From contig CBDBFU010000015.1 of assembly GCA_965205025.1 (NCBI GenBank), positions 64,001-128,000 of the forward strand: a stretch of 64,000 bases of DNA, read 5' to 3'. Of this stretch, positions 3,736 to 61,958 are shown in pieces. Every line of letters starts with the position of its first letter. Positions within the stretch are counted from its first letter, which is position 1. The notes beneath the pieces are model-generated. The model was not told where the DNA came from. It did no database searches and saw nothing but the letters and a program-made list of their open reading frames with translations. This stretch comes from Candidatus Poribacteria bacterium. GTDB lineage: Bacteria; Poribacteria; WGA-4E; WGA-3G. The translations under genes and the position numbers were made by a program.

Positions 3736-3772
3736 ATTTAGCTCAATTTATAATAGACTTACTTGATATGTT

Positions 3773-3989
3773 ATTCTATTTCTATAAATTATCGTCTCAT
3801 TAGGCGGTTATTATGGTAGTCATTTTTCAGGTCACAAACTGAATGAAGATTAATTTTTTAAATCGGTAATATACGGATGGGTTAACCCCGCCCCTACGAT
3901 AAGTTTATGGACTGGATTACCGAAATACTTACTTAATCCTCATAAAGTTTGTGGTACAAAAAAGAGACATTTTCAATTAGAAATGGTAT
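3773..3989. mobile_element. Family A MITE-like element (ATACCATTTCTA TIRs) with a nested family C element
   Basis: Homologous to 26387-26500 and to the reverse complement of 61544-61657; interrupted in its central hairpin loop. Confidence 0.85.
3843..3943. mobile_element. Family C 101-bp element (ATGAAGATTAA-N9-TCGGTAAT bipartite TIRs) carrying a GTAGGGGCGGGG REP hairpin
   Basis: Near-identical reverse complement at 61789-61889; absent from the uninterrupted A copies. Confidence 0.85.
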
Positions 3990-4024
3990 TAGATATTCCG
4001 GTGATTATTTTATGGAGGATGTGC

Positions 4025-7359: not shown

Positions 7360-8818
7360 CAATACCTTCGCCAATTATCCTGTGCTTAGTTCTAACTGTG
7401 TGTGATGAATAGCACCGATAGAACTAAGGTGCTGTGTGATTTGCTCAATAACAATAGGTTCAGGTTTTTGCGGAAGTATTTTTAATGTTTCCTCTAAATA
7501 CTTCATAGCTCGGTATTTTGCTTTCAAATCTAATACGCTACACGCCGTGTTATTAGACCGAAATGTGTTTGCCATTTTCGCACTCACATTTACCATAAAC
7601 AAGGATAAGTTTGCTGCATTGTTCACAGGTGTTTTTTTGACATTCATAAAATCTTCCAACCCCCAATACTGTTTTGCGTCTCTGAAGTTAAACTCTATTT
7701 GAAAACGAAGGGAGTAATAATCAATCATCTTTAGAGCACTCAGTTTTAGGTCAGAACTAAACAATAACACGTGTGATTTTTGTCCTGTCAGCAGATGCGT
7801 CTTGAGAAGACAAACAATATTGAGAGGATCCGCAAACTGCTTATGACGCAAGTGTACTTGATACACTTCGGTTCTGATGTTATCGGTTGTTTCAACAGAG
7901 ACACGCCATTTGTTATCCATTTGTTGTGGATTGAAACGATCCCCATAGAGGGCGCGGCGTCCACGACCTTTATACGGTGTCGTTGGTGGATAATAGAGCG
8001 CAGCATCTGTGCGAAGTTTTGAAATGAGATGGAGACCACATTGTGATACCATTTGTAGCGCATTATTGTGTCCGAAATATCCATCAAGCACAAAATAACG
8101 GAGTTTGATACAATCTCCCATCTGTTTGAGAAATGATTTCACCATAGTTTGAAGTTGTTTCAAAGTATTGCTGAACACAACATCCTTTTTGTTTCGATTC
8201 AGGCTCCCTTTGGGGCGACCACGCCCTCGTTTTGTTATGGCTTTCTGTGTATTCTCCTGATCTTCGATTGCAGACACATCCATATTGGCTGATGCGTTGC
8301 TACGCACGATTTGTTCCATCATCATTGGGTAAGAACACCTGTCTTTGACGCTTACTAAGGACACCGCTAAAAATGACAAACCGGAAATCGGTTTTCCATG
8401 TAATGAGGAGAAGAAGCGATCTATACCATAAGTTTTTTTCCCAGTTTTTGACACCGTGACTTCATCTGCTACAAGGATATACAAACTTTTAGGATCAAAC
8501 AGATATTTTTTGAAAAAGAGCCAACACATCTTTGGCCAAGGGAGATCTGTGCTAAAGAAGCGTTGTATCGTACGATAACTCCCTCCTTTTGATGTCCAAC
8601 GGGAGATATTTAACATTGTGACCTGACCTGTCATCGCAAGCAGGGCAAATACAACTTGACATAACTGGCGGATCATAGTAGTGGATAAACATAGATTAAA
8701 TACAGTAAATAATGCTATAATTTCTGGCATGGGTGTGTGTCCTTTCTAAGTTAAAATGATATTTTAAAACTTTAGGACAAACACCCTTTTTATTCAAGTG
8801 TTTTTGGCGAAGGTATTG
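7360..8818 (-). mobile_element. Complete insertion sequence (IS4/IS701-like DDE), 1459 bp
   Basis: Perfect 15-bp TIRs CAATACCTTCGCCAA (7360-7374) / TTGGCGAAGGTATTG (8804-8818); 6-bp TSD TAATAT at 7354-7359 and 8819-8824. Confidence 0.93.
7375..8730 (-). CDS. DDE transposase (IS4 superfamily)
   Basis: VADEVT, VLDGYF and YSLRFQIEFNFRDAK (Y-2-R-3-E-6-K) motifs; lies between the TIRs. Confidence 0.92.
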   Translation of the reverse strand: MPEIIALFTVFNLCLSTTMIRQLCQVVFALLAMTGQVTMLNISRWTSKGGSYRTIQRFFSTDLPWPKMCWLFFKKYLFDPKSLYILVADEVTVSKTGKKTYGIDRFFSSLHGKPISGLSFLAVSLVSVKDRCSYPMMMEQIVRSNASANMDVSAIEDQENTQKAITKRGRGRPKGSLNRNKKDVVFSNTLKQLQTMVKSFLKQMGDCIKLRYFVLDGYFGHNNALQMVSQCGLHLISKLRTDAALYYPPTTPYKGRGRRALYGDRFNPQQMDNKWRVSVETTDNIRTEVYQVHLRHKQFADPLNIVCLLKTHLLTGQKSHVLLFSSDLKLSALKMIDYYSLRFQIEFNFRDAKQYWGLEDFMNVKKTPVNNAANLSLFMVNVSAKMANTFRSNNTACSVLDLKAKYRAMKYLEETLKILPQKPEPIVIEQITQHLSSIGAIHHTQLELSTG

Positions 8819-8823
8819 TAATA

Positions 8824-8969
8824 TAACGTGAGTTTGATAAGACACATTGTACCCCGAACTTTTAGTTAACACCAGAGTGCACAAACTGGAAAGTTTGTGC
8901 TACAAAGACTATCTTCAGGACAAAATTCTGTTTATCGAACTGATATTTTTCATTATCAAACTGGCGTTA
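8824..8969. mobile_element. Family E 146-bp MITE-like element (TAACGTGAGTTTGATAA TIRs) with a central GTAGCACAAACT REP hairpin
   Basis: Near-identical reverse complement at 54941-55086. Confidence 0.85.
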
Positions 8970-10435: not shown

Positions 10436-13400
10436 TTAAGCGTTTAAGTTCGCAACATTTTCAATCTCAGTATATATACTTCTACCTTCCCCGTAATATG
10501 ATTCGTAGATGTGTTGATAGATTTCTTCATATTTCTCATGAAATATCATCGGCTTGTATACATCAGGAAGTCCGCTCTCTAAGATTTCAGCAATTTTAAG
10601 CTCTACTTGAGCGCGGGATTGTTGGTGTTTCCGCCAATCTAAAACCAAACTATTATATTTTAATTCTTCAATTAGTTTTTTGACAGTTGACTTTACTTCC
10701 TGTCTTTGAGGTAGTGTCATTTGAATATCGGGTTTAGTTAGTATGTCGTATATAGCGAGTTCTTCTTCTGATAGTTCTTCAGAATCTGCGCGTTTATCCT
10801 CTTGGCTGAGTTTAACTAAAAAATCGTATATTTTCTGTAATTGCTGATCATCAGTAATGGCTCCTGAATTATATTCTTCAATCATCTTTTCGTATTTATC
10901 TTGTAGGTCAATTCTACTCTTATTGAGTTGAATCATTTCTTTTAATTTCTGCTTTATGATCCCTTTTAATCGTTCTGCTTGTGTCCGTTTATGTTGAGTT
11001 TCAAATCGTTCGAGAAGTTCATCGATATCTATTTGACTCAAATCAATTAGTTGGTCATTATATGAAACTGATTCAGTATCTATAATATACCCATCAGGAG
11101 CAATAGAACGGTCAAGTAAATCTTCTACCTCATCTTCGATAGAAGAGATATCGACTGGACCCCCAAGACTTTTTATTCTTTTAGCTATAATATTGATGAG
11201 CGAACAGATCCCGCTAAATTCGTTTGCTTCGGTGTCGGGTAAGATTGCCTTAAAGAGTTTATTGATATGACGTGCCTGTTGCAGGTAATCACGTTTTGTC
11301 TCATCATTAATTAAGATTTTATTTACTGCGTCATCAATAAGTTGTATCTTCGACATTTGATCTGCATTCTGTATGATTGTAAGGTCAATGTTAATTAAAC
11401 TGCAGAACTGTGTGATTTCATCAACAGCATCTCTTAGTAGATTGATAAGTTCTGACTTATCTTCAATAGGATTTGCTCCATCCCCATTCGGTCCGGTGGC
11501 ATAAATTGCGAGTGCTTTTTCAAGATACCTGAATATACCTATATAATCAACAATGAGTCCGTGAATTTTTTCTTTATATACTCGATTTGCTCTTGCGATA
11601 GTTTGCATGAGGGTATGATTTCGCTGAGGTTTATCAAGATAGATTGTTGAACATGATGGTACATCGAAACCTGTAATCCACATTGCACAGACAAACACAA
11701 TTCGGAATGGATCATCAGGGTCTTTGAATTTTGTTTCCAAATCTTCAGCGTTCATTCTTCTACGATGTGGTAGGATGTCTGCATCTCTCTTTCTTAAATC
11801 ATCAATTTCATTTTGAGATGGTGATACAACTACTGCCATATCTGTATCATCCATATATTGAATAAGAGCTTCAAGCTGTTTTCTTTCGTCTTGTGAAGGA
11901 TTATTGTTTAGGTCTGATTTTAGAGACTGAATTTTCTGTTTCCAGTATTTTTGTACTTTGTCATACATTCTGACAGCAGTGGCTTTGTCTATTGATATAA
12001 CCATTGCTTTTCCACGATAACCCCTGCCGATGAAATGTGAGACAATATCCTCTGCGACCGTCTCTAATCTCTCATCTCTGGTAATGAGATGATATTCTCT
12101 TGCAAATTCCCGTTCGAGTTTTGCTTCCTGATTTTCATCCAGTTCGGCATCCTCAAGTATCTGTTCCAGATCAGAATTTAGATCTTGGTTTGTGAGTTGT
12201 AGTCTGGGAACACGGTTTTCATAATAGAGTGGTACGGTTGCTCCGTCAGCAACAGATTGCTTAAAATCGTATACTGATACATAATCACCAAATACTTCAC
12301 GTGTTCTTTCTTCACCTGCGATAAGGGGTGTTCCAGTGAAAGCGATGAATGCTGCGTTTGGAAGTGCAGTACGCATATTCATTGCTAATGTGTCGTATTG
12401 ACTTCTGTGTGCTTCATCAGTAATTACGATGATATCTGAACGATCAGATAAGATAGGATGAGGTGTGTTATCTTGTGTTTGAAACTTGTGTATAAGTGTG
12501 AAAACATAACGATGATCTTCACTTAGGAGTTGGCGTAAGTGTTGTATGTCTTCTGCGTGGACTTCTTGCTGTGTTAAGACCCCGCTTGTACTTGCAAATG
12601 TCTTATATATTTGCTTATCTAATTCTTGTCTATCTGTTACGACGACAAATGTCCATCTACCTGATTTCTTTCTAAGGACTTTCTGTGCGAAGAAAAGCAT
12701 TGATATGCTTTTTCCGCTTCCTTGTGTATGCCAAAATACACCGAGTTTCCCATGATTTGATTCGATATGATTTAGAGCATTGATTGCATTATTTACACCT
12801 AAGTATTGGTGGTTTTTCGATATTAGTTTTATAGTTCCACCTTGTACTTCCATAAACAGTGTAAAATTCTCTATAATATCTAATAGTCGTTTTGGTTCAC
12901 AAATTGCATTGAGTATGTTCTCTATTGCTACCTGTTGGTTTTCGTTTTCTTTTTCATCTTCAATACGTTTCCATTCCGCGAAATGCTCCCAGTTGGCAGT
13001 GAATGTACCAATTCGTGCTTCTGAACCGTTTGATAGGATGATAAATGCGTTATACCAGAAGAGATGGGGGATTGTGTCTTTGTAATCTCTGAGATTGTCA
13101 TTATATGCGTCATATAGATTTTCATCAATTCGTTTGAATTCCATTAGAATCAAAGGTACCCCGTTGACGAAACAGATTAGGTCAGGTCTTCTGGTATACA
13201 TTTCACCAGTAATTGAGAATTGAGATGCTGTATAGTAATCATTATTTTCAGGATTCTCCCAATCAATGACTTGTAGAATTATATCTGCTTCTTCTTGGGT
13301 GATTGGATTGGTGACTTTTACTTTTACGCCATCTTTTAGCAGAAAGTATATTTCACGATTTGCCTCAACAGAGTTCATTACAGCGCGGGATTGTGTAAGA

Positions 13401-13627
13401 ATTTCAATTGCTTGGTTGATAGCTTCTCTTGGTGTGTTTGGATTAAGGCGTTGTAAAGCTTCTTTAAGTCTATCAGTTAGAACGACTTCAGACTTTGATT
13501 GTCTATTATTGATCTGATAATCTGATTGGAATTCGTTTATGCAATTTTGGGTATACCACCCTATATTCTCAAGGATTGAGATTGCGGGTTGTTCTATGAG
13601 TTGATCTTCACTATAGGGGTTTTGCAT
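10436..13627 (-). CDS. hsdR: Type I restriction endonuclease subunit R
   Basis: RPDLICFVNGVPLILMEFK nuclease motif; HTQGSGKS, DEAHRSQY, FTGTP, TGFDVP, QTIARANR. Confidence 0.96.
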   Translation of the reverse strand: MQNPYSEDQLIEQPAISILENIGWYTQNCINEFQSDYQINNRQSKSEVVLTDRLKEALQRLNPNTPREAINQAIEILTQSRAVMNSVEANREIYFLLKDGVKVKVTNPITQEEADIILQVIDWENPENNDYYTASQFSITGEMYTRRPDLICFVNGVPLILMEFKRIDENLYDAYNDNLRDYKDTIPHLFWYNAFIILSNGSEARIGTFTANWEHFAEWKRIEDEKENENQQVAIENILNAICEPKRLLDIIENFTLFMEVQGGTIKLISKNHQYLGVNNAINALNHIESNHGKLGVFWHTQGSGKSISMLFFAQKVLRKKSGRWTFVVVTDRQELDKQIYKTFASTSGVLTQQEVHAEDIQHLRQLLSEDHRYVFTLIHKFQTQDNTPHPILSDRSDIIVITDEAHRSQYDTLAMNMRTALPNAAFIAFTGTPLIAGEERTREVFGDYVSVYDFKQSVADGATVPLYYENRVPRLQLTNQDLNSDLEQILEDAELDENQEAKLEREFAREYHLITRDERLETVAEDIVSHFIGRGYRGKAMVISIDKATAVRMYDKVQKYWKQKIQSLKSDLNNNPSQDERKQLEALIQYMDDTDMAVVVSPSQNEIDDLRKRDADILPHRRRMNAEDLETKFKDPDDPFRIVFVCAMWITGFDVPSCSTIYLDKPQRNHTLMQTIARANRVYKEKIHGLIVDYIGIFRYLEKALAIYATGPNGDGANPIEDKSELINLLRDAVDEITQFCSLINIDLTIIQNADQMSKIQLIDDAVNKILINDETKRDYLQQARHINKLFKAILPDTEANEFSGICSLINIIAKRIKSLGGPVDISSIEDEVEDLLDRSIAPDGYIIDTESVSYNDQLIDLSQIDIDELLERFETQHKRTQAERLKGIIKQKLKEMIQLNKSRIDLQDKYEKMIEEYNSGAITDDQQLQKIYDFLVKLSQEDKRADSEELSEEELAIYDILTKPDIQMTLPQRQEVKSTVKKLIEELKYNSLVLDWRKHQQSRAQVELKIAEILESGLPDVYKPMIFHEKYEEIYQHIYESYYGEGRSIYTEIENVANLNA

Positions 13628-13645
13628 ACAGGTAGATTTTAAGAA

Positions 13646-13820
13646 TTATTGCTGTGAAATTCTATTTAAGAAGTTTGGTGGTTCAAGGATTTCAATTCCA
13701 AATTCAAACATTGCTTTCTTGAGTTCTGGATCGTCGAGTAGGTCATTATCAGTAGATACCAGGATCGAACAATTAGGTTGGTATCAAAGGCAACTCGTTA
13801 GGTACGTAATCGGATTTCAT
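13646..13820 (-). pseudogene. Internally deleted and frameshifted PIN-domain toxin remnant
   Basis: ATG overlaps the upstream TGA; shifted frames give RVAFDTNLIV (PIN N-terminus) and ILVSTDNDLLDD..IEILEPPNFL (PIN C-terminus) with the middle missing. Confidence 0.7.
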
Positions 13821-14353
13821 TTTTGTTCACGTCTTACCTCTTCGAGTGCCTCCTCAAAGTCATGTATGACTTCATCTTCGGGTGTATCAGCAAATGCTTT
13901 ATTGAATCGAGCAGTAATATTGTCCCATTCCTTCTTTAACTGGTTTTGATTACTTTCAACACGAGCATGTATTTTAGATACAATTTCGTCCAGGTCTTCA
14001 TTTTCTGATGTAACATTTGAATGTTCTTGCGCGAAATATATTCTGTCAGCAAAATTATTTTGACTCACTACCTTTTTTATCTCATCCAACAGTTTTTGAT
14101 TTCTTGATTTTGGTTTTGCCGTATCAGTTACAAACACGATACAATCATCTTGTTTGAGGAAGTGCTGAATTGCTTGCTTTAGACTTTGGGGTGCTGGTGT
14201 TCCCATATTATGGCATTTATGGAATGCATTTCTTCCTGTAGTTTGAATTGCTAATTGACCTCGTTGAGTTGACTCTTGTAAACCATCTTTAAGATATTTA
14301 ACTGCGTTAGCATCTTGGTCAGATTCAAGGTTCCAGACTCTTATTCTAATCAT
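13817..14353 (-). CDS. Hypothetical protein: TOPRIM/DUF4276-like N-terminus plus antitoxin-like helical C-terminus
   Basis: N-terminal strand-ESDQD and IVFVTD; coupled to the AAA ATPase upstream and the PIN remnant downstream. Confidence 0.5.
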   Translation of the reverse strand: MIRIRVWNLESDQDANAVKYLKDGLQESTQRGQLAIQTTGRNAFHKCHNMGTPAPQSLKQAIQHFLKQDDCIVFVTDTAKPKSRNQKLLDEIKKVVSQNNFADRIYFAQEHSNVTSENEDLDEIVSKIHARVESNQNQLKKEWDNITARFNKAFADTPEDEVIHDFEEALEEVRREQK

Positions 14354-15564
14354 ACAGGTTCCTCCATTAGGTCTTGAAGTAATTGGCTATCGAAGATAGC
14401 ACTACCTATACCAAAGTCTGAAATCCATCCGTCAAGTCCTTCTCTATTATCACGAATATCTTCAAGATTGATGACTTCTGTTCCGAGACCTGGGCGATTT
14501 CTCAGGAGTAATACACCGAGTGAATCTGAGATATTGTCTGGATTAAAAGCGTCAAGTAGATGTGAACTATGTGTTGTGATAATGACTTGTGTTCGTTCTG
14601 ATAACTGCTTGAGTACATCTGCAATATTTTTCAAGGCACCAGGATGTAAACTTCGTTCAGGTTCTTCAATTGCAATGAGTGGTGGTAAATCAGGCAAATT
14701 GAGTAAAACGTAATATATCACGAGACGTATAGTTCCCTCAGATGCACTTAATAATGGAACTGGTCTCATATTCTTTTCTAATATACAAAATCTGTATTTT
14801 CCATTAATCTTGCAACGATCTATACGAAGTTTTAAACTGGATTCGAGAGATTCATTGACATTCCTGAATCGCTCAGGATCACTTTCAAACCAGCTTGAAA
14901 ACAACTCCGATATTGCTGTTCCAAAATCTCTGAGATTTGGTACGAAATCTAAATCTTCAAAATAATCAAGTTTAGGAATACCGTAGTTATCAATAGATAG
15001 TTTCATAGAATTTGGATGAAAATCATAAAACTTCCAATGCTTTATAAAGTTGGTTATTACACTTGTTATAGGATTGTTGCCAAATTCTGTAGATGCTAAT
15101 ACAGGTTTGTTTGAATTTAAGACAGTAGGATTAGTCCCAGATTCATCAAAAATAATTCCATTACCATTTACAACTTTTATTACTAAAGCATTATTAATCA
15201 ACAACCTTTCTATAATAACTGGATTATCAGATTTTATATCTAATACTAACTTGTAGTGAATAAGTCTATCTTCTACACTAAACATTAGTCTAAACTCACT
15301 ATAAGGTTTCTCTGGTTTTTCATCTATCTGATAAGTAAGCCTATTTATATCACCTAACCCAAAAAACCCTATTATGGATTTTATTTTTGATGGACTTCCT
15401 TTTTGCATCCAGTTAAAAAAGCGAAGTGTTTCTAAGCAATTTGATTTACCACTTGCATTGGGACCCACAAGAACTGTTAAAGGTTTGAGTGGAAGTGTGA
15501 CATTGCGCAAACTCAAGAAGTTTTTGATTTGTACTTTTTCTAAGATTGCTTCTTGCTCAGACAT
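14350..15564 (-). CDS. ABC-type AAA ATPase (AAA_21/AbiEii-like predicted ATPase)
   Basis: IKNFLSL, GPNASGKSN, SEGTIR, IEEPERSLHP, IITTHS. Confidence 0.9.
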   Translation of the reverse strand: MSEQEAILEKVQIKNFLSLRNVTLPLKPLTVLVGPNASGKSNCLETLRFFNWMQKGSPSKIKSIIGFFGLGDINRLTYQIDEKPEKPYSEFRLMFSVEDRLIHYKLVLDIKSDNPVIIERLLINNALVIKVVNGNGIIFDESGTNPTVLNSNKPVLASTEFGNNPITSVITNFIKHWKFYDFHPNSMKLSIDNYGIPKLDYFEDLDFVPNLRDFGTAISELFSSWFESDPERFRNVNESLESSLKLRIDRCKINGKYRFCILEKNMRPVPLLSASEGTIRLVIYYVLLNLPDLPPLIAIEEPERSLHPGALKNIADVLKQLSERTQVIITTHSSHLLDAFNPDNISDSLGVLLLRNRPGLGTEVINLEDIRDNREGLDGWISDFGIGSAIFDSQLLQDLMEEPV

Positions 15565-15669
15565 GTTATATTCCTCAGTCCTATACCTTTAAAGACAATA
15601 GCGTTTTCTTTAATTGGTAATCAACAGAAAATGTATTGATTCTTGATAGCGTATGCCCTACTTGTCGTT

Positions 15670-15698
15670 ATTATACAATCTGAAGTGCGGTATGTCAA
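15670..15698 (-). promoter_or_regulatory. Consensus sigma70 promoter TTGACA-N17-TATAAT upstream of the AAA ATPase
   Basis: Perfect match on the minus strand. Confidence 0.7.
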
Positions 15699-15716
15699 TT
15701 TGTTTCAGTTTACATG

Positions 15717-16015
15717 GGGTATGTAAGTTTTTGGCATGAATATCATACAACATTTGTGAATGGATACCAATACTTATCTAAACTCTTAATACTATACACG
15801 CTTAAAATTCTTACAAATATGGATATATATAATAATGTGGGATGTAAGGATAATGTGAATGGAAAAGTGTTAATATTTATTTTTCTGAGATGACTACACT
15901 TTCACGGAAACCTTCACGGAGCAATTCTACGAACCCTTATTCTATAAGGGTTTATAATTTTAATGACCCCATTCTCCGTGAATCACGCATGTTAAAATAC
16001 ATATAACTTAAGTGT
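15717..16015. repeat. Family D ~300-bp dispersed repeat with an iteron/palindrome core
   Basis: Diverged reverse-complement homolog at 51351-51670; TTCACGGA repeats around AACCCTTAT-TCT-ATAAGGGTT. Confidence 0.75.
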
Positions 16016-16043
16016 AAACAAATAGATCTTTGGTTTTCAACTG

Positions 16044-16157
16044 ATACCATTTCTATAGATGTTTATCTCATGAATTGTTGTTAAGCATATCTTGAAATAC
16101 TGCACAAACTGGAAGTTTGTGCTACATTAAAGAGACTTTAATTATCGGAGATGGTAT
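16044..16157. mobile_element. Family B 114-bp MITE-like element (ATACCATTTC TIRs, GTAGCACAAACT REP hairpin)
   Basis: Homologous to 33973-34087 and to the reverse complement of 61730-61958. Confidence 0.8.
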
Positions 16158-16504
16158 AAGATGTATAAATAGAATATCATCTGGTGTTTTCATAGTGCAT
16201 ATTTGATATTGTTGAGTGTGAATATGCTTTTAAGGTAGTCTGGGACTGGGTTTATAGATGGTGTTATTGACTCATATATTTTCATAGTAACTATGAAAAT
16301 GTAATATACTTATTTCTTATTAAATTGTTGTAAAGTCAGTCCTACACAGGGTTTATAGGTTGTTTACGAGAGGGTTGGTGGAAGGAAGTAACTATGAAAA
16401 AATATGAAAGTTATATAACGAAATGTGAATGAATATATATTTATATGTTATATATCGTTTTTCTTTATGTTATTCCTAGTGTGTATAGAGAGTAGGTTTG
16501 GCTG

Positions 16505-17779
16505 TTATGATTCTGAAGATTCGTCTTGTAGTATTTGGGTATCAATATCAAGATTAGATACATCTATTTCTCCAGAGATGAGTTTTGGGAGGATTAGATC
16601 TCTGGCTTCCTGCAGATATTCATTCTTACTTGTTAGGTTCGCTATTTTTGAAGAAATTGGTTTTTCTAAATCCACATATCTATCAACAATAGCATAAGAC
16701 GGCTCCAAGAGTTTTATTTCTAATAGATCTGCCTTAGTTATTGCTTTAAAAATAGTACCACTACCCATGATATCTTCATTCTTAAATAGATGTTTTAGTT
16801 GCTGTAAGATGAATGACTGATTCCTATATTTACTTCTAATTGCTGAAATACCTCTACCAATCACAATCCTCTTATTTGCAATATTAATACGCCCAACAGG
16901 TGCACGTACACTAAAGAGTATATCACCATCTTCAGCAATTCTTTTCATTAACATACAATAGACTCTATCTACAGGAAAACGCGGACCAAAATTAGTAACA
17001 CCTTGATGAAATGGTAAACCTTCTCCAATATAATTATAATATTCAGATTTTGGAGACTGACCCATTATTACTTCGCACATATTCGCTAGATGTTTAACAT
17101 TCCATCCTTGTGGAATTGGACCTAATTCTGATTCTACCATAGGAATATTCTCATGTCCGGGGAAACGGAAATGGACGAACCATTCTCGGTAGAGTGTTTG
17201 TGCCATGTCTTCGAGTATTTTGATTCGGCGTGTGTTGTTTTCGATTAGGTCGTCGTAGGTGCTTAGGATTGCAGCGATTTTTCGTTGGGTTTGGAGGGGT
17301 GGAAGAGGAATTGGTAAATCCCGTAGATCCGGTTGACGTATTCCTAAGACTGTTGTACCTGTAGCCCGTAAATTCAACTCTTGTAAACAGATATGTGTGC
17401 TAAAGTAATAAAATAGAAATGATGGAATTATGTGTTTTGGATTTGCTCGGATACAGAATAGTCTTTGACTAAGACAGATTCTTCTGCTGTCAGGTATTAA
17501 ATAAGATTCACCTAAAGGTGCCTCGGATGTTAACAAAATGTCATTTTTTATTACTTCTGATTTCATCCACTTTTGGTACAAGTCTTCATCTACAAATTTA
17601 GCTTTTTCTAAATTTACCAATCTCCCATTTTTTATATTCATAGCAGATAGTGCGATAATTCCTGAATCTGACCATTCACCACCCAATTTTTTTGGGGTTT
17701 TTCCTCGGTAATCAATTATTTCTGTGATTAGATGGTCAAGTTTTTCTATTTTCCAATCAGTTGGTTTTGTGTTACCCAT
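16505..17779 (-). CDS. hsdS: Type I restriction-modification specificity subunit S
   Basis: Two TRDs joined by the conserved PLPPLQTQRKIAAIL..LEDMAQTLYREWFV..GPIPQGW region; C-terminal RDLILPKLISGEI. Confidence 0.95.
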   Translation of the reverse strand: MGNTKPTDWKIEKLDHLITEIIDYRGKTPKKLGGEWSDSGIIALSAMNIKNGRLVNLEKAKFVDEDLYQKWMKSEVIKNDILLTSEAPLGESYLIPDSRRICLSQRLFCIRANPKHIIPSFLFYYFSTHICLQELNLRATGTTVLGIRQPDLRDLPIPLPPLQTQRKIAAILSTYDDLIENNTRRIKILEDMAQTLYREWFVHFRFPGHENIPMVESELGPIPQGWNVKHLANMCEVIMGQSPKSEYYNYIGEGLPFHQGVTNFGPRFPVDRVYCMLMKRIAEDGDILFSVRAPVGRINIANKRIVIGRGISAIRSKYRNQSFILQQLKHLFKNEDIMGSGTIFKAITKADLLEIKLLEPSYAIVDRYVDLEKPISSKIANLTSKNEYLQEARDLILPKLISGEIDVSNLDIDTQILQDESSES

Positions 17780-17904
17780 ATTGTTTCCTGATAAACTATA
17801 TGTAGGATTTTTAGTATTGATTCTTACACCTACACTTATTCTATATTAACGACTTGTATCAGCTAACTAATTGTTTTTGTGTTTTTCACGGATTATATGT
17901 TTTG

Positions 17905-18200
17905 TGCTATAAACATTTCGTCCCTACGGGACTCATTTAGTTAATTGATCAGTTTTCTATAGACATTCCGTCCCTACCAAATCAAGGAATCAACGGTATG
18001 AATGCTATTTAGCATTCACCGGGTATGAATGCCATATGAAGATTAAAATAATAATTCGGTAATGTGTTAGAAATTCGAATCAACGGTATGAATGCTATTT
18101 AGCATTCCCCGTGGTTAGGAAACCGAACCTACCGAGTTTGGGAATATGGGAATTACCGAATTTAAAACTTAATCATCATTAGGCATTCCCCGGGACTCAT
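17905..18200. repeat. Multi-layer nested repeat cluster (50-bp hairpin doublet > GAATGC hairpin element > family C element > second GAATGC element)
   Basis: GTCCCTAC|GGGACT split at 17977/18192; C-type TIRs at 18036 and 18179; AATCAACGGTATGAATGCTATTTAGCATTC occurs at 17988 and 18078. Confidence 0.75.
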
Positions 18201-18481
18201 AATCTTTATATGATTGTTCCGGTTACACTTAAATCATAATGTAAGTGTATCAATTGAAAATGGTATTAGTAAGGTTTTTTTCGATTATTTCCTTGTATGA
18301 TGTGTTCCGAACTTAAAACCTATACAGTATAAATAATGTGTAGATAGATATTGTACATTAAGTAGGAATTCCATAAATAGAGACAGTTCCTTCATATCCA
18401 TTATTACTTTATCTCTTTGAGTTTATCATTCTGTGGCGAAAATAAAGGTTAATCGTTCTGCTACATTCAGATTTTAGCGTG

Positions 18482-18766
18482 CTAACGATTAGATCTCTTT
18501 AGCATTTTTTCATATTCGCTATGGGGACCGATCCAATTCCAAATAATCTTACCATCTTCTTCATATCCTAAAGCTCTGTAATCATTGGTAATTCGTATTG
18601 ACCAAAGATCAACAGAAACCTTTTTGAATTGAAGGGATGGATATAAAGGGTTTTCTTGTAAGACTTGGATTTGTTTCGCAGTACGTCTTTGTATATTTTG
18701 CGGAAGTTTTTGCACCAATCCCATAAAGTTCGGATTTCTGATATGCTCGAATTGTAAGTTATTCAT
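18482..18766 (-). CDS. RelE/ParE-like toxin
   Basis: NPLYPSLQFKKV, WSIRITNDYRALG, WNWIGPHSEY. Confidence 0.8.
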   Translation of the reverse strand: MNNLQFEHIRNPNFMGLVQKLPQNIQRRTAKQIQVLQENPLYPSLQFKKVSVDLWSIRITNDYRALGYEEDGKIIWNWIGPHSEYEKMLKRSNR

Positions 18767-18768
18767 AC

Positions 18769-19086
18769 CTACACAAACTTAGTACACCTACCAGCTTTGT
18801 AATCTTCGCGAGCCTTTTCAATAAGGTTATCAAGCCTACCTGCTTCCATATCTTCTTTGATCTGCTGATCCCACGCTTCTTCTTTGGCAATGAGGGTTTG
18901 CTCAATCATATCCGGCAATTTTTGTTGGACGGCTTCGGCAGTTTCCGCAGCGTATTCTATTTCGGGTAGTTCAGCGATTGTTCCCTCCCAACTCTTTCCG
19001 TTCTTTTGGATATATGCGGTATAGGTTTCATCGAACAGTTTATTATAGATATAATAAGTTATCATTCCTTCACCAGTAATGACCAT
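18769..19086 (-). CDS. Antitoxin (HicB-like N-terminus plus WDQQIKEDMEAGRLD C-terminus)
   Basis: Acidic small protein 2 bp upstream of the toxin; WEGTIAELPE..AET HicB-like motif. Confidence 0.7.
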   Translation of the reverse strand: MVITGEGMITYYIYNKLFDETYTAYIQKNGKSWEGTIAELPEIEYAAETAEAVQQKLPDMIEQTLIAKEEAWDQQIKEDMEAGRLDNLIEKAREDYKAGRCTKFV

Positions 19087-19360
19087 ATTATATATCTCCT
19101 TGATTGTAAAATAATTCTTTGGCTATAAGGGTGGTTTTTTGTTGTTAATGCGATAATTCAATGGTATAATGTTTGTCTTAAAATTATTTTTTAGTCGCTA
19201 CTCAAGCGCGTTTGGCACGGCTCATACCATCGTTAAAGTGTATTTTGCTGTATGTAATACCATTTCTATTTGATTATATCTCATTAATGATTGAGGAAAC
19301 TCCTAAATTCTCTTATCAGGGACTTTAAGATGAATTGCGTAAATCCTAAATATTATTACA

Positions 19361-20923
19361 TTATACGATATCTTCTAATATTATAGTAACATTTTCTGCA
19401 ATCTGTTCTTCGAGTTGGTGTGCTTCGGAGTTTAGGATTTCTAATTCTTCATTAAGTTCTTGGAATCTTTGTTGGAAATCGAAATCCTCTTCTTCTTGTG
19501 CGGCTACTCCGACATAACGTCCAGGATTAAGACTCCATCCTTGTGCTTCTATTTCATCTATCGTTGCAACTTTACATAGACCGGGAACATCTACATATTC
19601 ACCATTAGGGAAGTTGGTATCAAGGAGTTCAGTATTGTTATTTAGATTTTCAGGTGATTCCTCTCGGTATAACCTTGCTATATTACCCAGAAATTCTATA
19701 TGTAATGGTGTGAAGTCTCGATGTGCTTTTCTGACTTGTTGGTATATGTTTCGTGCATCAATGAATAAGACTCTATCTTGTCTGTCTGTCTTCTGTTTTG
19801 GTTTATCAAAAAACCAGAGGGTGCATGGAAGTGTGACGGTATAGAAGAAGTTTGAAGATATACTTATCATTACATCTACTACACCAGACTGTATGATCTG
19901 TTTTCTGATTTCTAATTCCGATGCGCGTGCATCTGCAGCGGAGTTTGCCATGACAAAGCCTGCGCGTCCATTTTTGTTTAGGGAACTCAGGAACAGTTGT
20001 ATCCAGATATAATTTGCATTATCCACTCTTGGCATACCGTAAGGAAATCGTGGGTCGTCTTTTATACGTTCCATGTCAACTCTGTCAACATTAAAAGGTG
20101 GATTCGCCATGACATAGTGGAATTTATTTAATGCCTTATGTGGATCTTCATAGTAGCTGCTGGCTTGCCTAATATCTCCTTCTTGACCGTGTACAGCAAG
20201 GTTCATTTTACAGAGTTTAATCGTTTCGGCAACGCGTTCCACACCATATATACTGATCTGTCCTTGGTTTCCGTTTTGATTGTGATTTCGAATGAAGTCT
20301 TCACTTTGTACGAACATACCTCCTGATCCGCATGCTGGATCGAGAATACGACCATGAAACGGTTGAAGAATTTCAACTATGAGTTTTACGAGTGAGGTAG
20401 GTGTAAAGAATTCACCACCGCGTTGTCCTTCGCTCATTGCAAAGTTGCCTAAGAAGTATTCATAGACTTTTCCGAAAGCGTCTCCTTCAATCTGCGGAAT
20501 TTGTTCCATGATTCGTAATAATTCAATAAGTGTGCTTTTTTCGAGTCGGTTGTATGTTTTGGGTAGGACTCCTTCTAACTGTTGGTTTTCAGCTTCAATT
20601 GCTTTCATGGCATCCGTAACTGCCTGTGCAATGTTTTCACTTTCGGGTAGATTCAGGAGATGTTCGAATCTGGCATTTTCAGGTAGGTAGAATGCGCCGC
20701 GCGCTTGGAATAATGTTCTTTCATTTATCTGTAGTATTCTACTACCAGAGGATTCCGAAGTGATTTCTTCTCTGACTTGATGAAATTTATGGTCTGCGTA
20801 TTTAAGGAAGATAAGACCAAGGACAGGAGTTGAATATTCAGACGATCTAAGGTTTGAATTTGCCCTAAGTTCATCTGCAGTATCCCATAATCTCTGTTCA
20901 ATTTCGGAAAGGTTTGTATTCAT
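19361..20923 (-). CDS. hsdM: Type I restriction-modification N6-adenine methyltransferase subunit M
   Basis: [21 protein letters not shown]; start set at [13 protein letters not shown] (ATG 20923). Confidence 0.96.
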
Positions 20924-20933
20924 ATTATTTCCT

Positions 20934-23900
20934 TTAGAAGAAAGAGCGACCGAGTGAATTACCTGCACCAAATGAATTATATGGCACACCAGCGGGTAAT
21001 GTGTGGAGACCCCAAGTTTCGGTGGTAGCATCATATCCAACACCCATGGATACTGCGGGTTCTCCAATTAGGTTGACTTGGAATGTGAAGTCCTGACGAA
21101 CTGTGTCATAAGGGGGTTCACGTTTTATTCCGACACGGCTCCATGAGATTCGTAAGTTCCAATCGTGTAAATTACGGTTCATACTTATCCGCTGTGAGTA
21201 AAACTGTCTTTCAATTGGATAATAGATAAGATTGAAATCAAACTCCAGATTTGGGTTCACACGATATCGACCGTTTGCAGTCATAGAACGTGATGCCCGT
21301 AACGATGTGTGTCTTTTACTGAAAGAATTACCAAAACTAACGTACCATTTCTTTCTTGTGTAGCGAATGTTCGTTCGGATTCCAACCATTTTGAATTGTT
21401 TTCCATCTACAGGATGTGGATTTGGGTCATGTGTCATTCGAACAGTCATATTTAGATTACGACTTGGAAGCGGTACAATTGTGAAGTCACTGTCAATCGG
21501 TTCATATTTTCGTCTATATAAAGATTCAAATTCTGTGAAGTCTGCTGTAAGCCGGGTATCAAAATAAAAGATACGATGAGCAGATTCGCTCCTACGTGTT
21601 TTTATTTCAATATTCGTATTGAAATTATAAGTTAGTCTTTTACGTTCATAGAAGAAAGTACTGGGTCCAAAAGGATAGAGTATGCTTTCCTCATCGATTG
21701 CAGGTTGGTAATCGAAAGTGAGTGTTGATTGTAATTCATGTCGTAGTTTTCTTACACCTGGAATATAGTTGGTCTTGTATATACGAAATAGTGTATTCGT
21801 TGCTTGGGATCTGATACTATAAACCCCACGTATAATATTTCTATTCTTTTCTTGATCTTTATCGTGCCATATCATGTTTGTATTCAGTGTGGAACTGAAT
21901 TTAAGTTCCCGTAAAGGAGTAATTAATAAGGTTGATTGTTTACGCAGATCAAAACCTAAATCTAAGGTTTGTAGAAAAACGTCATTTTCTTCACCAAATT
22001 TACCACGATACTGTTGTCGATAGAAGTTCCCGAACTGAATGTCCATGTCAAAGCTTGTGTCTTCAAGAGTAGGAAATGCAAGTAATGATAGTATTGGTTT
22101 ATCACTTTTCAGTTTATCAGAAACGGAAACTAATCGGTCATTAACGTATTCGAAAACAGGTAATCTGTTGAATCGCATTCGTGAGAAATTCAGTGTGAAT
22201 TGCGGTAGTTTCTGTAGGGCGGTTGTACCTTCACCGGAGAAATCCTGTACATGTCGCACCTCAAGTCTTGACGTAATATCCCCGATTGTTTCTTCTGAAT
22301 ATGTGAGATTACCGTTTTTATCAATATCTCTGTCACTTGCTGTGGACAAAGCGGATCCGTATGTAAGGATACCAAAGGATCTGAGAGTAGATTCGTTGGG
22401 TAGTTGGAAGTTTTCTTTATACGAGAGAGCGCGCCAATCAGCTCTTCCAATAAAACTAATGGGTCGTCGTCCGTCTTTACGGCTATCCCAAGGGGTAAAG
22501 AAAGATTGTCTATGTCCCCATCGCATATTCCAACGTCTTCCAATTCTTGTAGCATCTTGTCTACTAAATGAGTATTCGTCAGCCCCGTAGAAATATATAT
22601 CTCCAATATAGCTGCGTTTCTTATCCACTTTAATGAGACGAAACGACTTTTTTGTTTTTATAACGCGGCTATATTCACCTGCATATAGACTTTGTGCTTC
22701 AGAAGCGACTTGTCTTGGATCCTCCCATTTACCCCTATATCCATGTTTCCTATATACTTCAATCTTTTCTTCTTCTTCACCTTCTTCAGTATTTTCTCCA
22801 ACTTTTAAGACTTCTTGTTCATGTTCGTCCATGTCATGAGTCGGTCCATCTTCAACTTGTTCATTTTGTGTATTCTCATCATCCTCACTTGTTATAGTGT
22901 CTGGTGAAATATCAGGTGTCAATTCAGTTTCATCTGTAATTTCTGTGTCGATTGATTCTTCAGGTGCTTTGTCCTTATCCTCTATCATTTTAGGATCTTT
23001 TTCCTCAGTTTTTCGTTCCTCATCTGTTGTTGCCAATACTTCTGCTTGGAAAGTTTCCCAGTTAGCTTCGAACTCTTCGGCTAATTCTTCAAAAGTTGGA
23101 GTTGCCTCCTTTTTTATTAGTTGAAAAATGTAATTTCCTTCATCAGAGAACACAGGACGATCTTCCGTAATATCTCCGGGGTTTTCCATTCGTCTAATAG
23201 AGTATTGCCATGACTGTTCCATTTCATTCAGTGGCATACCTTCCCCATCATTTATTTCTGACAAAACTGCTTCAGGATATTCTGCAGCAAGTTCTTCAAA
23301 GGATTCTCCAGCGATTGCCCTTTCATGAATTTTCTCACCTAAATCTCTGATGCTTTGTTGTGTTTCACTACTTGCTTCAATTGATATATCAATTCTATAG
23401 AGTTTAATTTCCCGTTCACCATAAACATCAAGGATCCGTCCGACTTTCAGGATATGAAAGGCGGATTCAGTTCTCAAGAGATTACTAACTTCTCCTTCGT
23501 TGAGAGAAAAAGCTGCTTCTTCTAATACGGGGTCAAGTAAAGGAGTTCCATCTTCGTCAGTTTCACCTCGTGCAAGGAATCCCATATCCCCACCATCGTA
23601 ACGGGTATCAGTATGATCTGATTCTCTTTGTGCAATAGCTTGGAAGTCTCCATCTTCTTCATTCAACTGGTCAATGATTTTTTCCGCTTCTTCTTTTGCT
23701 CGATTAGCATCTTCTTCAGTAATTGTATATTCTAAAAAGATTTGTTTTAACCAATATCTATCGTAATCCCCTTCAAGTCGATCATATATTTCATTTGCCT
23801 TCTCTTCTAACTTTGTTCGTTGTGCTGGCGTGGCGTCAGGTGGTAAAGGAATATGTATCTCTCTGAATTGTGTATCTCGAAATCTGTATTTTCCTTCAAA

Positions 23901-26188: not shown

Positions 26189-26386
26189 GATCTATCTCCA
26201 GAATTTGATAGTTATTAGATCCTATTTGTTAGATATATTACTGGTTTATTGTTGTTTTGAATCGAAGAAAAATGACCAATATAATTCCTGATTTTTTCTT
26301 AATATCCAAACCATCAAGAGACCTATATGGTGACAGGTGTTATGGCAAATTTGATAAAATGTTTGTTTTTCTGAAAAATAATTGTA

Positions 26387-26500
26387 ATACCATTTCTATA
26401 GATTATTGTCTCATTAGGTGCTTATTATGGTAGTCATTTTCTGGTCACAAACTGAAAGTTTGTGGTACAAAAAAGAGACATTCTCAATTAGAAATGGTAT
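26387..26500. mobile_element. Family A 114-bp MITE-like element (uninterrupted)
   Basis: Perfect 12-bp TIRs ATACCATTTCTA/TAGAAATGGTAT; central CACAAACT-GAA-AGTTTGTG hairpin. Confidence 0.87.
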
Positions 26501-26674
26501 AACATTCATTTTGCTTTCTTCTTCAAGAGATATAGATCTCATTCCTAAATATAGATTTTTTAATTTCTGATCTGTCGTTATAGGTTTGTTGCTATAAGTA
26601 TTATTTTCTTCAATTTTTATTCAAAATTGTTGAAGAGTCGTACTTTTTGAATTGACACTATACGATTAATAATG

Positions 26675-33972: not shown

Positions 33973-34087
33973 ATACCATTTCTAAAGATGTTTCATCCCA
34001 TGAATGGCTGTTATACATATCTTGAAATGTAGCACAAACTGGTAGTTGATGCTACATTTTAGAGAATATAAGTATCAGAAATGGTAT
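33973..34087. mobile_element. Family B MITE-like element
   Basis: TIRs ATACCATTTCT/AGAAATGGTAT; homologous to 16044-16157. Confidence 0.8.
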
Positions 34088-50273: not shown

Positions 50274-50488
50274 ATATATTTGTCCTGTTCTAATATAGAT
50301 TATCAATAAATACAACGTTCATTTATTGATATTGTTGACCAATTGGATAAAAACCCAAAATTATTGTTGTAGAGGAATGGTTGTTTCTAATACGCTATTA
50401 ATCCGTTTGGAGGGTGTGTAAAACTTTTGTAAGTGTTTCGTCATTGAGACAGTCCTTGAGGCATTCTCACTACCCGGCTGAGATTTCT

Positions 50489-50569
50489 TCACACCAGCGG
50501 TGTGATATGTCTATAGCAAACCGATACATGCAGAGCGCACACTCCAGCGGAGTGCTATGTCTATAGAAA
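50489..50569. repeat. Hairpin-TATGTCTATAG doublet, 50-bp period
   Basis: TCACACC-AGC-GGTGTGA and CACTCC-AGC-GGAGTG, each followed by TATGTCTATAG. Confidence 0.75.
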
Positions 50570-50575
50570 CATAAT

Positions 50576-50615
50576 GTAGCATAAACTTCCAGTTTGTGCA
50601 GGACTTCAAGACATA
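50576..50615. repeat. Partial family B element / GTAGCATAAACTTCCAGTTTGTGC REP
   Basis: Matches the reverse complement of 16086-16125. Confidence 0.65.
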
Positions 50616-51237
50616 CATAACAACGTGTGTATAAAGTATATGGCATTAATAAGAAGAAAATGAAACCAATCAAACAATAAAAAAATGAAGAAAACATCCA
50701 TCTCTAACAACTAAATACATATATCACAAAAACAGAAGCACATATTAAGAATATCTGTCAAAATGAAAATAAAATTAAGGTTTAGAACACAAACTAAAAA
50801 CCAATAACTATAAACTAATGACAATTTATAAAAACGATCCTAATTACAAAGTTTCATATACGTCAAATATGCATACCTTTATAACCGTTGGGTATCTCAA
50901 AATCAGAAAGCACAACAATAACACAAAATCACATATTTTCGAATTTCTTAAAAAGTCAATTCAAAGTGGAGTAAAGTCAGTCTATGACAGGGGTTATACG
51001 GGTAATTTACACCAATTTCAATGTCACACCGTGTGACAAAATGTGTAACTTTTTTCATGTTTTCGATACATAGAGAAATGCAACAACAATACGATCTACT
51101 GTCTGAGTATTTAGGATTAAATGACTGTTTTTAGACCTTATTTTTGTCTGTATATTAGGATTAACAATTCTAATTCATGGGAAACTGAGTCTCTAATGAT
51201 AAGTCTATTTTTTGGAGTTTTCTATATCAAAAATACC

Positions 51238-51309
51238 GTACTCCAGTGGAGTACTATGTCTATAGAAAACAATATCGGAACAATCTGGCACTCCAGCGGA
51301 GTGCTATGT
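51238..51309. repeat. Hairpin-TATGTCTATAG doublet, 50-bp period
   Basis: GTACTCC-AGT-GGAGTAC-TATGTCTATAG and GCACTCC-AGC-GGAGTGC-TATGT. Confidence 0.75.
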
Positions 51310-54940: not shown

Positions 54941-55086
54941 TAACGTCAGTTTGATAATGAAAAATGTCAGTTCGATAAACAGAATTTTGTCCTGAAGATA
55001 GTCTTTGTAGCACAAACTTTCCAGTTTGTGCACTCTGGTGTTAACTAAAAGTTCGGGTTAAAATGTGTCTTATCAAACTCACGTTA
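54941..55086. mobile_element. Family E 146-bp MITE-like element
   Basis: Reverse-complement copy of 8824-8969. Confidence 0.85.
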
Positions 55087-55387
55087 TTTTACATTTCTAT
55101 TCATTTTCAAATCATCTAAACCTATCCTTAACTATCACTTTTAAATTGCATTTTGTGTTTATGTAAAAGTTAAGATTATATAAATTTGACTTCATACACT
55201 CTCTTCAAAAAGTATAGAAATTATGTATAAACAATTTCACAATTAAACGTCTAATTATGTTAAAAAGAGCGATTACATTGGTACAATATTAATAGTAGAT
55301 TTTAAAATTAAACAATATTTAATGTAATATATAGAATCAGTCATAAAATGATTTACTCGTACTCCTTTATTCTGCTTGGAGATAACA

Positions 55388-56689: not shown

Positions 56690-56850
56690 TATACTCTCAA
56701 TATGAATTATGAATTATCCGGTTAGGATTCGAGTTTCCACGATAATTACTATAAACCGGTTAATGATTAAAGCGTCAAAATATAAATAATTACAATGTCT
56801 AAATAATTCAATATCTTCAATTCTATCAACAAAATTTTAGATGATTTCCT

Positions 56851-56877
56851 GAACTTTCCAACTTCTTGTCTGTCTAA
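56851..56877 (+). promoter_or_regulatory. SigmaE-like promoter GAACTT-N16-TCTAA
   Basis: Matches the classical RpoE consensus, 36 bp upstream of permease 2. Confidence 0.5.
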
Positions 56878-56913
56878 CAAGCCAACCACTACTATATTTT
56901 CTGAGGATATACA

Positions 56914-58215: not shown

Positions 58216-58225
58216 GAGGTAATCG

Positions 58226-61543: not shown

Positions 61544-61657
61544 ATACCATTTCTAATTGAAAATGTCTTTTTTTTGTACCACAAACTTTCAGTTAGTGAC
61601 CTGAAAATGACTGCCATAATAACCGCCTAATGAGACAATAATTTATGGAAATGGTAT
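61544..61657. mobile_element. Family A 114-bp MITE-like element (reverse orientation)
   Basis: Reverse complement of 26387-26500. Confidence 0.85.
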
Positions 61658-61729: not shown

Positions 61730-61958
61730 ATACCATTCTGGTAATTAAAGTCTCATTAATAGTATCTCTTTAATATAGCACAAACTTCATGAGGATTAAG
61801 TAAATATTTCGGTAATCCAGTCCATAAAATTATCGTAGGGGCGGGGTTAACCCGCCCGTATATTACCGATTTAATAAATTAATCTTCATCCAGTTTGTGT
61901 AGTACTTCAAGATATAAATATCACCTAATCATGGGAAAATCATTTATAGAAATGGTAT
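61730..61958. mobile_element. Family B element with a nested family C element
   Basis: Reverse-complement homolog of 16044-16157, interrupted at the hairpin loop. Confidence 0.82.
61789..61889. mobile_element. Family C 101-bp element with a GTAGGGGCGGGGTTAACCCGCCC REP
   Basis: Reverse-complement copy of 3843-3943. Confidence 0.85.

Follow-up and report, generated by a model that had tools for sequence, protein, structure and literature searches.

The window, i.e. the whole 64,000-nucleotide stretch of a Candidatus Poribacteria contig analysed here, carries genes with a Gram-negative look, among them TonB receptors, MacB/FtsX pumps and a type I restriction system, and is syntenic with and approximately 84-87% identical to a locus of Poribacteria isolate MSPOR6 (L027). 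Direct reading of the window confirmed the positions that a first-pass annotation had given for small repeats of families A and B (six copies) and E (two copies), and all eight copies contain a GTAG- or GTAC-led CACAAACT/AGTTTGTG hairpin. A hairpin with such a tag had been ascribed to all families, including C, which holds in so far as one is present in A, B, E and C, while that of the C copies in the window is a different, G+C-rich one. According to the ORF table, all eight A, B and E copies are intergenic, several of them lying 9-63 bp from a gene end, and one ORF, if read from an alternative start at 3983, would overlap the first A copy at its end.

Repeat copies and their surroundings in the window

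The intact family A MITE at 26388..26499 (minus strand; 112 bp without its duplications) has the arms TACCATTTCTA and TAGAAATGGTA and is flanked by TAA duplications at 26385-26387 and 26500-26502. Its hairpin spans 26446-26464, the GTAC tag occupies 26465-26468 of the minus strand, and the copy folds with z = -4.3 and -5.1; whole elements, taken as single strands, generally fold better than shuffles (z = -3.9 to -5.1). The copy in reverse orientation (61545..61656, plus strand) has TAA/TAA flanks and a hairpin at 61580-61598 with one stem mismatch. The remaining A copy (3774..3988, minus strand) has a degenerate left arm and TTA duplications at 3771-3773 and 3989-3991, and is interrupted by a 101-bp family C MITE (3843..3943, plus strand), which sits mid-loop in the A hairpin (CACAAACT GA^AA AGTTTGTG) and carries a G+C-rich GTAG-led hairpin as cargo.

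Family B is represented on the minus strand by the copies at 16045..16156, with the flanks TGA/TAA (a duplication with one mismatch) and the hairpin at 16103-16121, and at 33974..34086, with the flanks TGA/TGC and a hairpin at 34033-34051 whose 3' arm is degenerate. The B copy at 61731..61957 (plus strand, TAA/TAA duplications) is again interrupted by a 101-bp C element (61789..61889, minus strand) in the middle of the hairpin loop (CACAAACT TC^CC AGTTTGTG). The two family E MITEs measure 146 bp each and are located at 8824..8969 (minus strand, IS982-type terminal repeats, ATA/ATA flanks, hairpin at 8880-8899 with a degenerate second hairpin) and at 54941..55086 (plus strand, TTT/TTT flanks, hairpin at 55011-55030). 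In E, an inverted doublet has degenerated, and the hairpin represents its intact half. Another C-type MITE (18036..18179, plus strand, 144 bp) lies mid-loop in a different hairpin, GAATGCC AT^TA GGCATTC, and holds a nested copy of a 35-nt hairpin repeat. Two partial copies can be added to the earlier list, namely a solitary left arm of an A/B-type element (19257..19293, plus strand) and a B-type remnant at about 50576..50650 (plus strand), consisting of the hairpin GTAG-CATAAACT..AGTTTGTG and the B spacer without good arms.

A chance origin of these repeats is ruled out by the word count (CACAAACT occurs 24 times in the window, with 2.8 expected), by the A/B terminal 12-mer (34 matches at no more than two mismatches, 12.4 expected), by the complete hairpin-plus-tag pattern (four matches, 0.00 expected) and by the flank-base counts given below.

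Several further features were observed in the neighbourhood. A complete insertion sequence (7360-8818) with perfect 15-bp terminal repeats and a 6-bp TAATAT duplication adjoins the first E copy; it encodes, on the minus strand, a 451-aa DDE_5 transposase whose best NCBIfam match is IS701 with 121 bits, below the cut-off of 170. In L027 (about 11312-11563), a non-coding derivative of roughly 250 bp with the ends of this element interrupts an A-type MITE. The repeat of roughly 35 nt (AATCAACGGTATGAATGC-loop-GCATTCNCCG) occurs at 17987-18021 and 18077-18111 of the window and in many C cargos of the related loci, and where it is nested in the loops of other hairpins inside C elements, three nesting levels result. 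A block of roughly 10.5 kb (window 10436-21067), comprising hsdR, hsdS, hsdM, an AAA_21/AbiEii-like ATPase and several MITEs, is missing from L027 (5710-5893) and, being absent from a syntenic relative, looks like a defence island bounded by repeats. At 55376-59542, three tandem MacB_PCD/FtsX permease paralogues, the first two of them about 77% identical over 300 nt, are followed by an HlyD-type adaptor.

Target-site duplications, terminal repeats and candidate transposases

The first-pass annotation had regarded a single matching base on either side of the elements as a special feature. Re-reading reproduced the matches (five of the six A/B copies and both E copies), and these are above chance, as two random bases match with P = 0.269 and at least seven matches in eight have a P of about 6e-4. 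The A/B match turned out to be the middle base (W) of an ordinary 3-bp TWA duplication, because a pair of filled and empty sites restores a single TTA: in L027, a B-type copy is inserted as TTA-TACC..GGTA-TTA, and the orthologous site in the window is empty with one TTA. The terminal A and T, which had been counted as part of the element, thus belong to the duplication, as is seen in the filled/empty pair and in 17 of 21 copies; for A/B, this is the outcome by which the annotation had proposed to refute its reading. The earlier A/B bounds were consequently one base too wide at both ends, namely 26387-26500 and 61544-61657 for the uninterrupted A copies (114 bp), 16044-16157 (114 bp) and 33973-34087 (115 bp) for the uninterrupted B copies, and 3773-3989 (A) and 61730-61958 (B) for the copies that are each split by a 101-bp C element. 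With one base trimmed from each side, the elements read TACCATTTC...GAAATGGTA, and four of the six A/B duplications in the window are perfect, the other two having one mismatch.

When window and related loci are taken together, the 17 exact 3-bp direct repeats among the 21 good-arm A/B copies in the matches listed comprise nine TTA/TTA and eight TAA/TAA, and mismatched pairings gave an exact repeat in 156 of 420 cases. Inverted TTA/TAA flanks, the pattern to be expected if the triplet belonged to the inverted repeat, were seen in only one of the 21. Exact 3- or 4-bp repeats flank 15 of 19 E copies among the matches listed (mismatched pairings: 14 and 5 of 342), and exact 5-bp repeats flank 12 of 22 copies of family F, an arm type of the related loci, again among the matches listed (mismatched pairings: 3 of 462). 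A perfect duplication is accordingly absent in 4 of 21 A/B, 4 of 19 E and 10 of 22 F copies of that sample. The a/a and t/t matches of the window's E copies arise because the duplications ATA and TTT happen to start and end on the same base. The F duplication is better read as 5 bp than as 7 bp, which lengthens the element by one base on either side. In intergenic region and orientation, the A copy at 26387 agrees with L027 11299-11666, and the two may be orthologous, with flank triplets that differ (TAA vs TTA).

The terminal inverted repeats measure 11-12 nt in A/B, with an additional inner GTCTC/GAGAC pairing, 17 nt at 88% in E and 11 nt in C, and the elements are 83-229 bp long, non-coding, multi-copy and present in many assemblies. 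E-type ends bound elements of 1015-1018 bp in three loci among the matches listed. One of these (L065 2244-3261; 1018 bp, GAA/GAA flanks) encodes a protein of 301 aa with a DDE_Tnp_1_3 domain and a score of 249 bits on the NCBIfam IS982 model (cut-off 130). The part common to E and this element is restricted to the ends, about 18 bp each, and E is therefore not a simple deletion derivative. We posit that E is moved in trans by an IS982-family element with the same terminal repeats of roughly 18 bp. Some IS5-family groups and PIF/Harbinger elements typically duplicate a TNA/TWA triplet, and the TTA and TAA repeats of A/B have this form; their mobiliser would be an enzyme that duplicates T-W-A. 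No autonomous partner with A/B or C ends and no IS5-family or PIF/Harbinger-like transposase with A/B-matching ends was found in the 1.3 Mb of related loci, nor was a long, transposase-encoding form of C, the C elements there measuring 101-334 bp. Long pairs of A/B or C ends were considered as autonomous elements and proved to be separate copies or to enclose ordinary genes (hsdS, a WD40 protein).

Arm families, hairpin cargo and the apex insertions of family C

Scanning a species-representative genome collection for the hairpin-plus-tag pattern listed at least 99 stretches, and the 97 loci that were analysed come from at least 45 assemblies, of which 42 are titled Candidatus or uncultured Poribacteria, two 'uncultured bacterium' and one a Chloroflexota MAG. 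Among the matches listed, the arm families that enclose the hairpin number at least five and differ in terminal repeats and duplication length: A/B (TWA), E (3-4 bp), F (5 bp), R (TA flanks on both sides) and G. At least one arm of five TIR families was recognised within 120 nt of 136 of the 172 hairpins in these matches, and both arms at 83; the R-arm pattern is loose and the one-arm counts are probably inflated. Thirty-six of the 172 have no recognised arm and some look naked, such as a doublet in L079, so that the hairpin also exists outside MITEs.

The arms in turn enclose more than one cargo. Those of A/B (about 25 and 30 nt) also hold other GTAG..CTAC palindromes (in L041, L065 and an 83-bp copy in L070), those of F carry at least four different cargos among the matches listed, and those of E also enclose another palindrome family; among the matches listed, 22 of the 26 C copies of up to 240 bp have GTAG or CTAC in their cargo. 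Counting TIR elements with and without the REP among listed copies that the scan pattern could not select brought up both kinds (3 vs 6 for A/B, 2 vs 3 for E and 4 vs 7 for F), and the proportions are biased because the loci were fetched through the hairpin itself. None of the A/B-type elements examined was an empty, arms-only MITE, and cargo capture or insertion was never caught in the act. According to these observations, the hairpin is a passenger module common to several arm families.

Variation on this theme was noted at individual loci. In a B-type MITE of L052 (9918-10122), the unit of hairpin plus 14 nt of spacer is present three times in tandem. Two paralogous TPR/trypsin-like genes of L041 (2136 and 3771) both stop exactly at a half A-type element, the same coding sequence extending in either case as far as the GTAG tag, and the A-type repeat may supply the 3' end of these genes. 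The naked inverted doublet of L079 (300-350) has no recognisable arms and lies on a contig binned as Chloroflexota, which could reflect mis-binning or transfer.

The hairpin itself was compared across 81 distinct, related sequences, gathered by similarity to each arm among the matches listed. Stem cells are paired in 95.4% of cases, and 36 cells are changed on both sides, in comparison to 11.0 +/- 2.4 in shuffles, none of 500 of which reached 36. Two of the eight pairs covary, switching from A-T to G-C or T-A, and 18 sequences show a G-T wobble on the tagged strand at one pair. The hairpin thus stays foldable on the GTAG strand, and the covariation supports a structural constraint on the stem without proving it, as the sequences are related and were collected by arm similarity. 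Of 70 hairpins among the matches listed whose stems lay outside the reach of the scan pattern, 66 have a GTAG or GTAC tag on one or both sides (background 0.0047 per position), and the tag is therefore no artefact of the search pattern. In the matches listed, 89 of 172 non-redundant hairpins are inverted doublets with a CGCAAACT/AGTTTGCG partner and outward-facing tags, resembling REPINs; the window has a doublet only in the form of the degenerate second hairpin of E. Taken together, the terminal repeats, duplications, covariation and tag counts bear out the proposal of mobile mini-elements that are bounded by TIRs and enclose a REP-like, GTAG-tagged hairpin under structural constraint.

The hairpins had also been suggested as landing pads for family C, and this is supported. 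Among the matches listed, 22 of the 26 complete C copies are bracketed by 8-nt arms with complementarity at six or more of eight positions, which is the case for 117 of 20000 random positions; these arms start 2 nt from each end of C, and 16 of the 26 pairs are complementary at seven or more positions. The targets in these matches are 11 REP-1, five GCGCGTTT, four GTCCC and two GAATGCC hairpins, plus others. That unrelated hairpins are hit at the apex points to a choice of target by structure, not sequence, and thus to structure-specific recognition by C. Rejoining the flanks of C yields a hairpin with a 4-nt loop, and among the 81 distinct sequences, uninterrupted hairpins have a loop of 3 nt in 59 cases and of 4 nt in 22, so that C duplicates 0 or 1 nt.

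Origin of the elements and comparison with known systems

In our judgement, A, B, E and C are probably non-autonomous cut-and-paste MITEs native to Candidatus Poribacteria, whose GTAG-tagged REP-type palindromes are a cargo that is modular with respect to the arms. Each element would consist of two short arms recognised by a transposase around such a palindrome and, judging from duplications and terminal repeats, would be moved in trans by DDE transposases; for C this would be an enzyme that integrates at hairpin apexes with 0 or 1 nt duplicated. We further posit that arms and palindromic cargo have been repeatedly recombined or captured, whereby several unrelated arm families would come to spread the same REP.

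A second way of mobilisation, implied when the hairpins were first described, is possible but rather unlikely. On this view, the GTAG hairpins would be, or would recently have been, substrates of RAYT transposases, would have seeded themselves into MITEs and would then additionally ride on DDE transposition. GTAG-tagged REPs are tied to RAYT transposases and, in the part of the source that treats their distribution, both are reported from eight phyla, including Planctomycetes and Verrucomicrobia among related deep phyla (PMC3733652). The retention of the tag, the REPIN-like doublets with outward tags, the existence of naked doublets and the coexistence of at least five different classes of GTAG-led hairpins all agree with such a route, as does the finding that Poribacteria encode a Y1/HUH transposase with inverted hairpin flanks (L013). 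The searches for the enzyme speak against it. No Y1 domain was present among the 42 window proteins, none of 2770 ORFs passed a RAYT motif screen (with a possibly too strict motif), and tblastn of the 1.3 Mb of related loci with E. coli RayT returned nothing credible, the best match (E 0.16) lying in an unrelated 442-aa ORF. A RayT profile built from 120 close enterobacterial relatives, and hence of limited sensitivity, matched a single protein in 9994 ORFs, that of L013 (2071-2571). This Y1/HUH transposase (PF01797, 94 bits) exceeds the cut-off of the IS200 model (73 bits, cut-off 55) and falls short of that of the RAYT model (31 bits, cut-off 80), and its gene is bracketed by inverted copies of a different repeat, composed of a hairpin plus ATGTCTATAG. 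RAYT genes flanked by the hairpins, as had been anticipated, were thus found neither in the window nor in the 1.3 Mb of related loci. The six examined intervals between hairpin pairs contain ordinary genes, six of their eight ORFs belonging to common Pfam families (Ldh_2, TPR, MurJ, epimerase, trypsin-TPR), and the two without a family, both in L048, have only weak rhamnosidase-like NCBIfam matches. The HUH/RAYT route for the hairpins is accordingly unproven.

The repeat that brackets the L013 gene represents a second small family, in which a variable short hairpin (e.g. CACTCC..GGAGTG) is followed by ATGTCTATAG; it occurs in the window at 50488-50566, 51240-51300 and 17957-17966 and in L013 at 1940-2900. 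The 5' region of the IS200-type transposase is tandemly triplicated, and the hairpin-plus-ATGTCTATAG repeats may be its non-autonomous derivatives.

A more far-reaching reading, which we regard as unlikely, is that poribacterial intergenic DNA forms a nested, structure-directed mobile system. Hairpin apexes would serve as sites for a MITE family and apparently also for the 35-nt nano-repeat, and an exchangeable or self-inserting GTAG cargo, moved by an HUH enzyme or by gap-repair capture, would colonise active DDE MITEs. If true, a REP lineage persists across the phylum by hitch-hiking on changing transposases.

It is quite doubtful that the hairpin is a cis-acting part of the MITE, i.e. a central cruciform or host-factor site that helps the ends of a 110-150 bp element to meet, so that carriers amplify better. 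The GTAG-led palindrome between the arms of every A/B-type element examined, its position near the centre of A, B and E and the good folding of whole elements would fit this idea, but the hairpin adjoins one arm in F and one terminal repeat in E subfamilies, some copies with F or E arms carry a cargo other than a REP, and four or five unrelated transposases would all need to profit. A host function of the hairpin, for instance in stabilising mRNA 3' ends or in binding a protein, with the carrier MITEs tolerated or co-opted, appears improbable too: the intergenic position of all window copies, several of them close to gene ends, the covariation and the one-strand G-T wobble (which fits a single-stranded or RNA role) are in line with it, and such roles are described for REPs in the relevant part of PMC3184786, but no Rfam family reached its gathering score anywhere in the window, orientation to the neighbouring genes varies, and an intrinsic terminator was rejected because no T-run follows the hairpin on either strand.

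We thus return to MITEs with REP cargo as the preferred reading. REPs and MITEs are usually regarded as distinct types of small repeat that rely on distinct enzymes, and in this little-studied, uncultured and sponge-associated phylum one REP-type hairpin has spread mainly as cargo of unrelated MITE families. This situation lends itself naturally to the study of how MITEs exchange cargo, and of whether REPs can outlive or dispense with their own transposase. The structure-specific targeting by C is testable and could be useful, and the nested repeats account for much of the intergenic clutter in Poribacteria genomes and probably for some of their assembly breaks. No published description of MITE- or REP-type repeats of Poribacteria was found in the full-text literature searched. 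While the flank-base puzzle has an ordinary answer, the modularity of arms and cargo across the phylum and the targeting of hairpin apexes are the interesting parts.

By every feature compared, the repeats belong to the MITE kind. Like the bacterial MITEs that share only terminal repeats with insertion sequences (Correia/NEMIS, RUP and Nezha, as far as these are outlined in the corresponding section of PMC3184786), they are short, non-coding and intergenic, have terminal inverted repeats and duplications and vary in presence between relatives, and for E a partner insertion sequence exists. They differ in that the cargo is a GTAG-tagged REP palindrome common to at least five arm families (TA, TWA, 3-4 bp and 5 bp) and that the same arms carry several different GTAG palindromes. 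With GTAG REPs and REPINs, as characterised in the pertinent passages of PMC3116915 and PMC3733652, the hairpin shares the 27-28 nt palindrome, the unpaired GTAG or GTAC at one end, the inverted doublets and the dispersed intergenic copies. In contrast to these, the stem is A+T-rich, no RAYT was found in the sequences searched, and the majority of copies are enclosed in elements with TIRs and TSDs; MITE signatures are absent from REPs according to the section of PMC3184786 that deals with them, whereas here only the armless minority among the matches listed is free of recognised arms, and all window copies are in MITEs.

Five IS families are known to include insertion sequences that target REPs, some of them at the symmetry axis (PMC1525189; PMC3184786, in the portions on REP targets), and C resembles them in entering a REP at a set position or on its axis of symmetry, as IS1397/ISKpn1, ISPsy8, ISRm22 and IS621 do according to the excerpted account in PMC1525189. 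Unlike them, C is a non-coding MITE of 101-334 bp without a transposase of its own, enters hairpins of at least four unrelated sequences, always at 2 nt from the stem, and duplicates 0-1 nt, in comparison to the 3 or 6 bp reported for ISPsy8 and ISRm22 in the same account (PMC1525189). With regard to the IS982 family, E shares terminal repeats and short duplications with the 1018-bp element of L065, whose 301-aa DDE transposase scores above the family cut-off, and has nothing internal in common with it. A similar nesting is said to have been described by Elhai and colleagues in 2008 for cyanobacteria, in which small dispersed repeats reportedly lie within larger ones; very small repeats are likewise placed inside others here, while phylum and sequences differ. 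Seen against these systems, the poribacterial repeats are ordinary MITEs with an unusually modular REP cargo.
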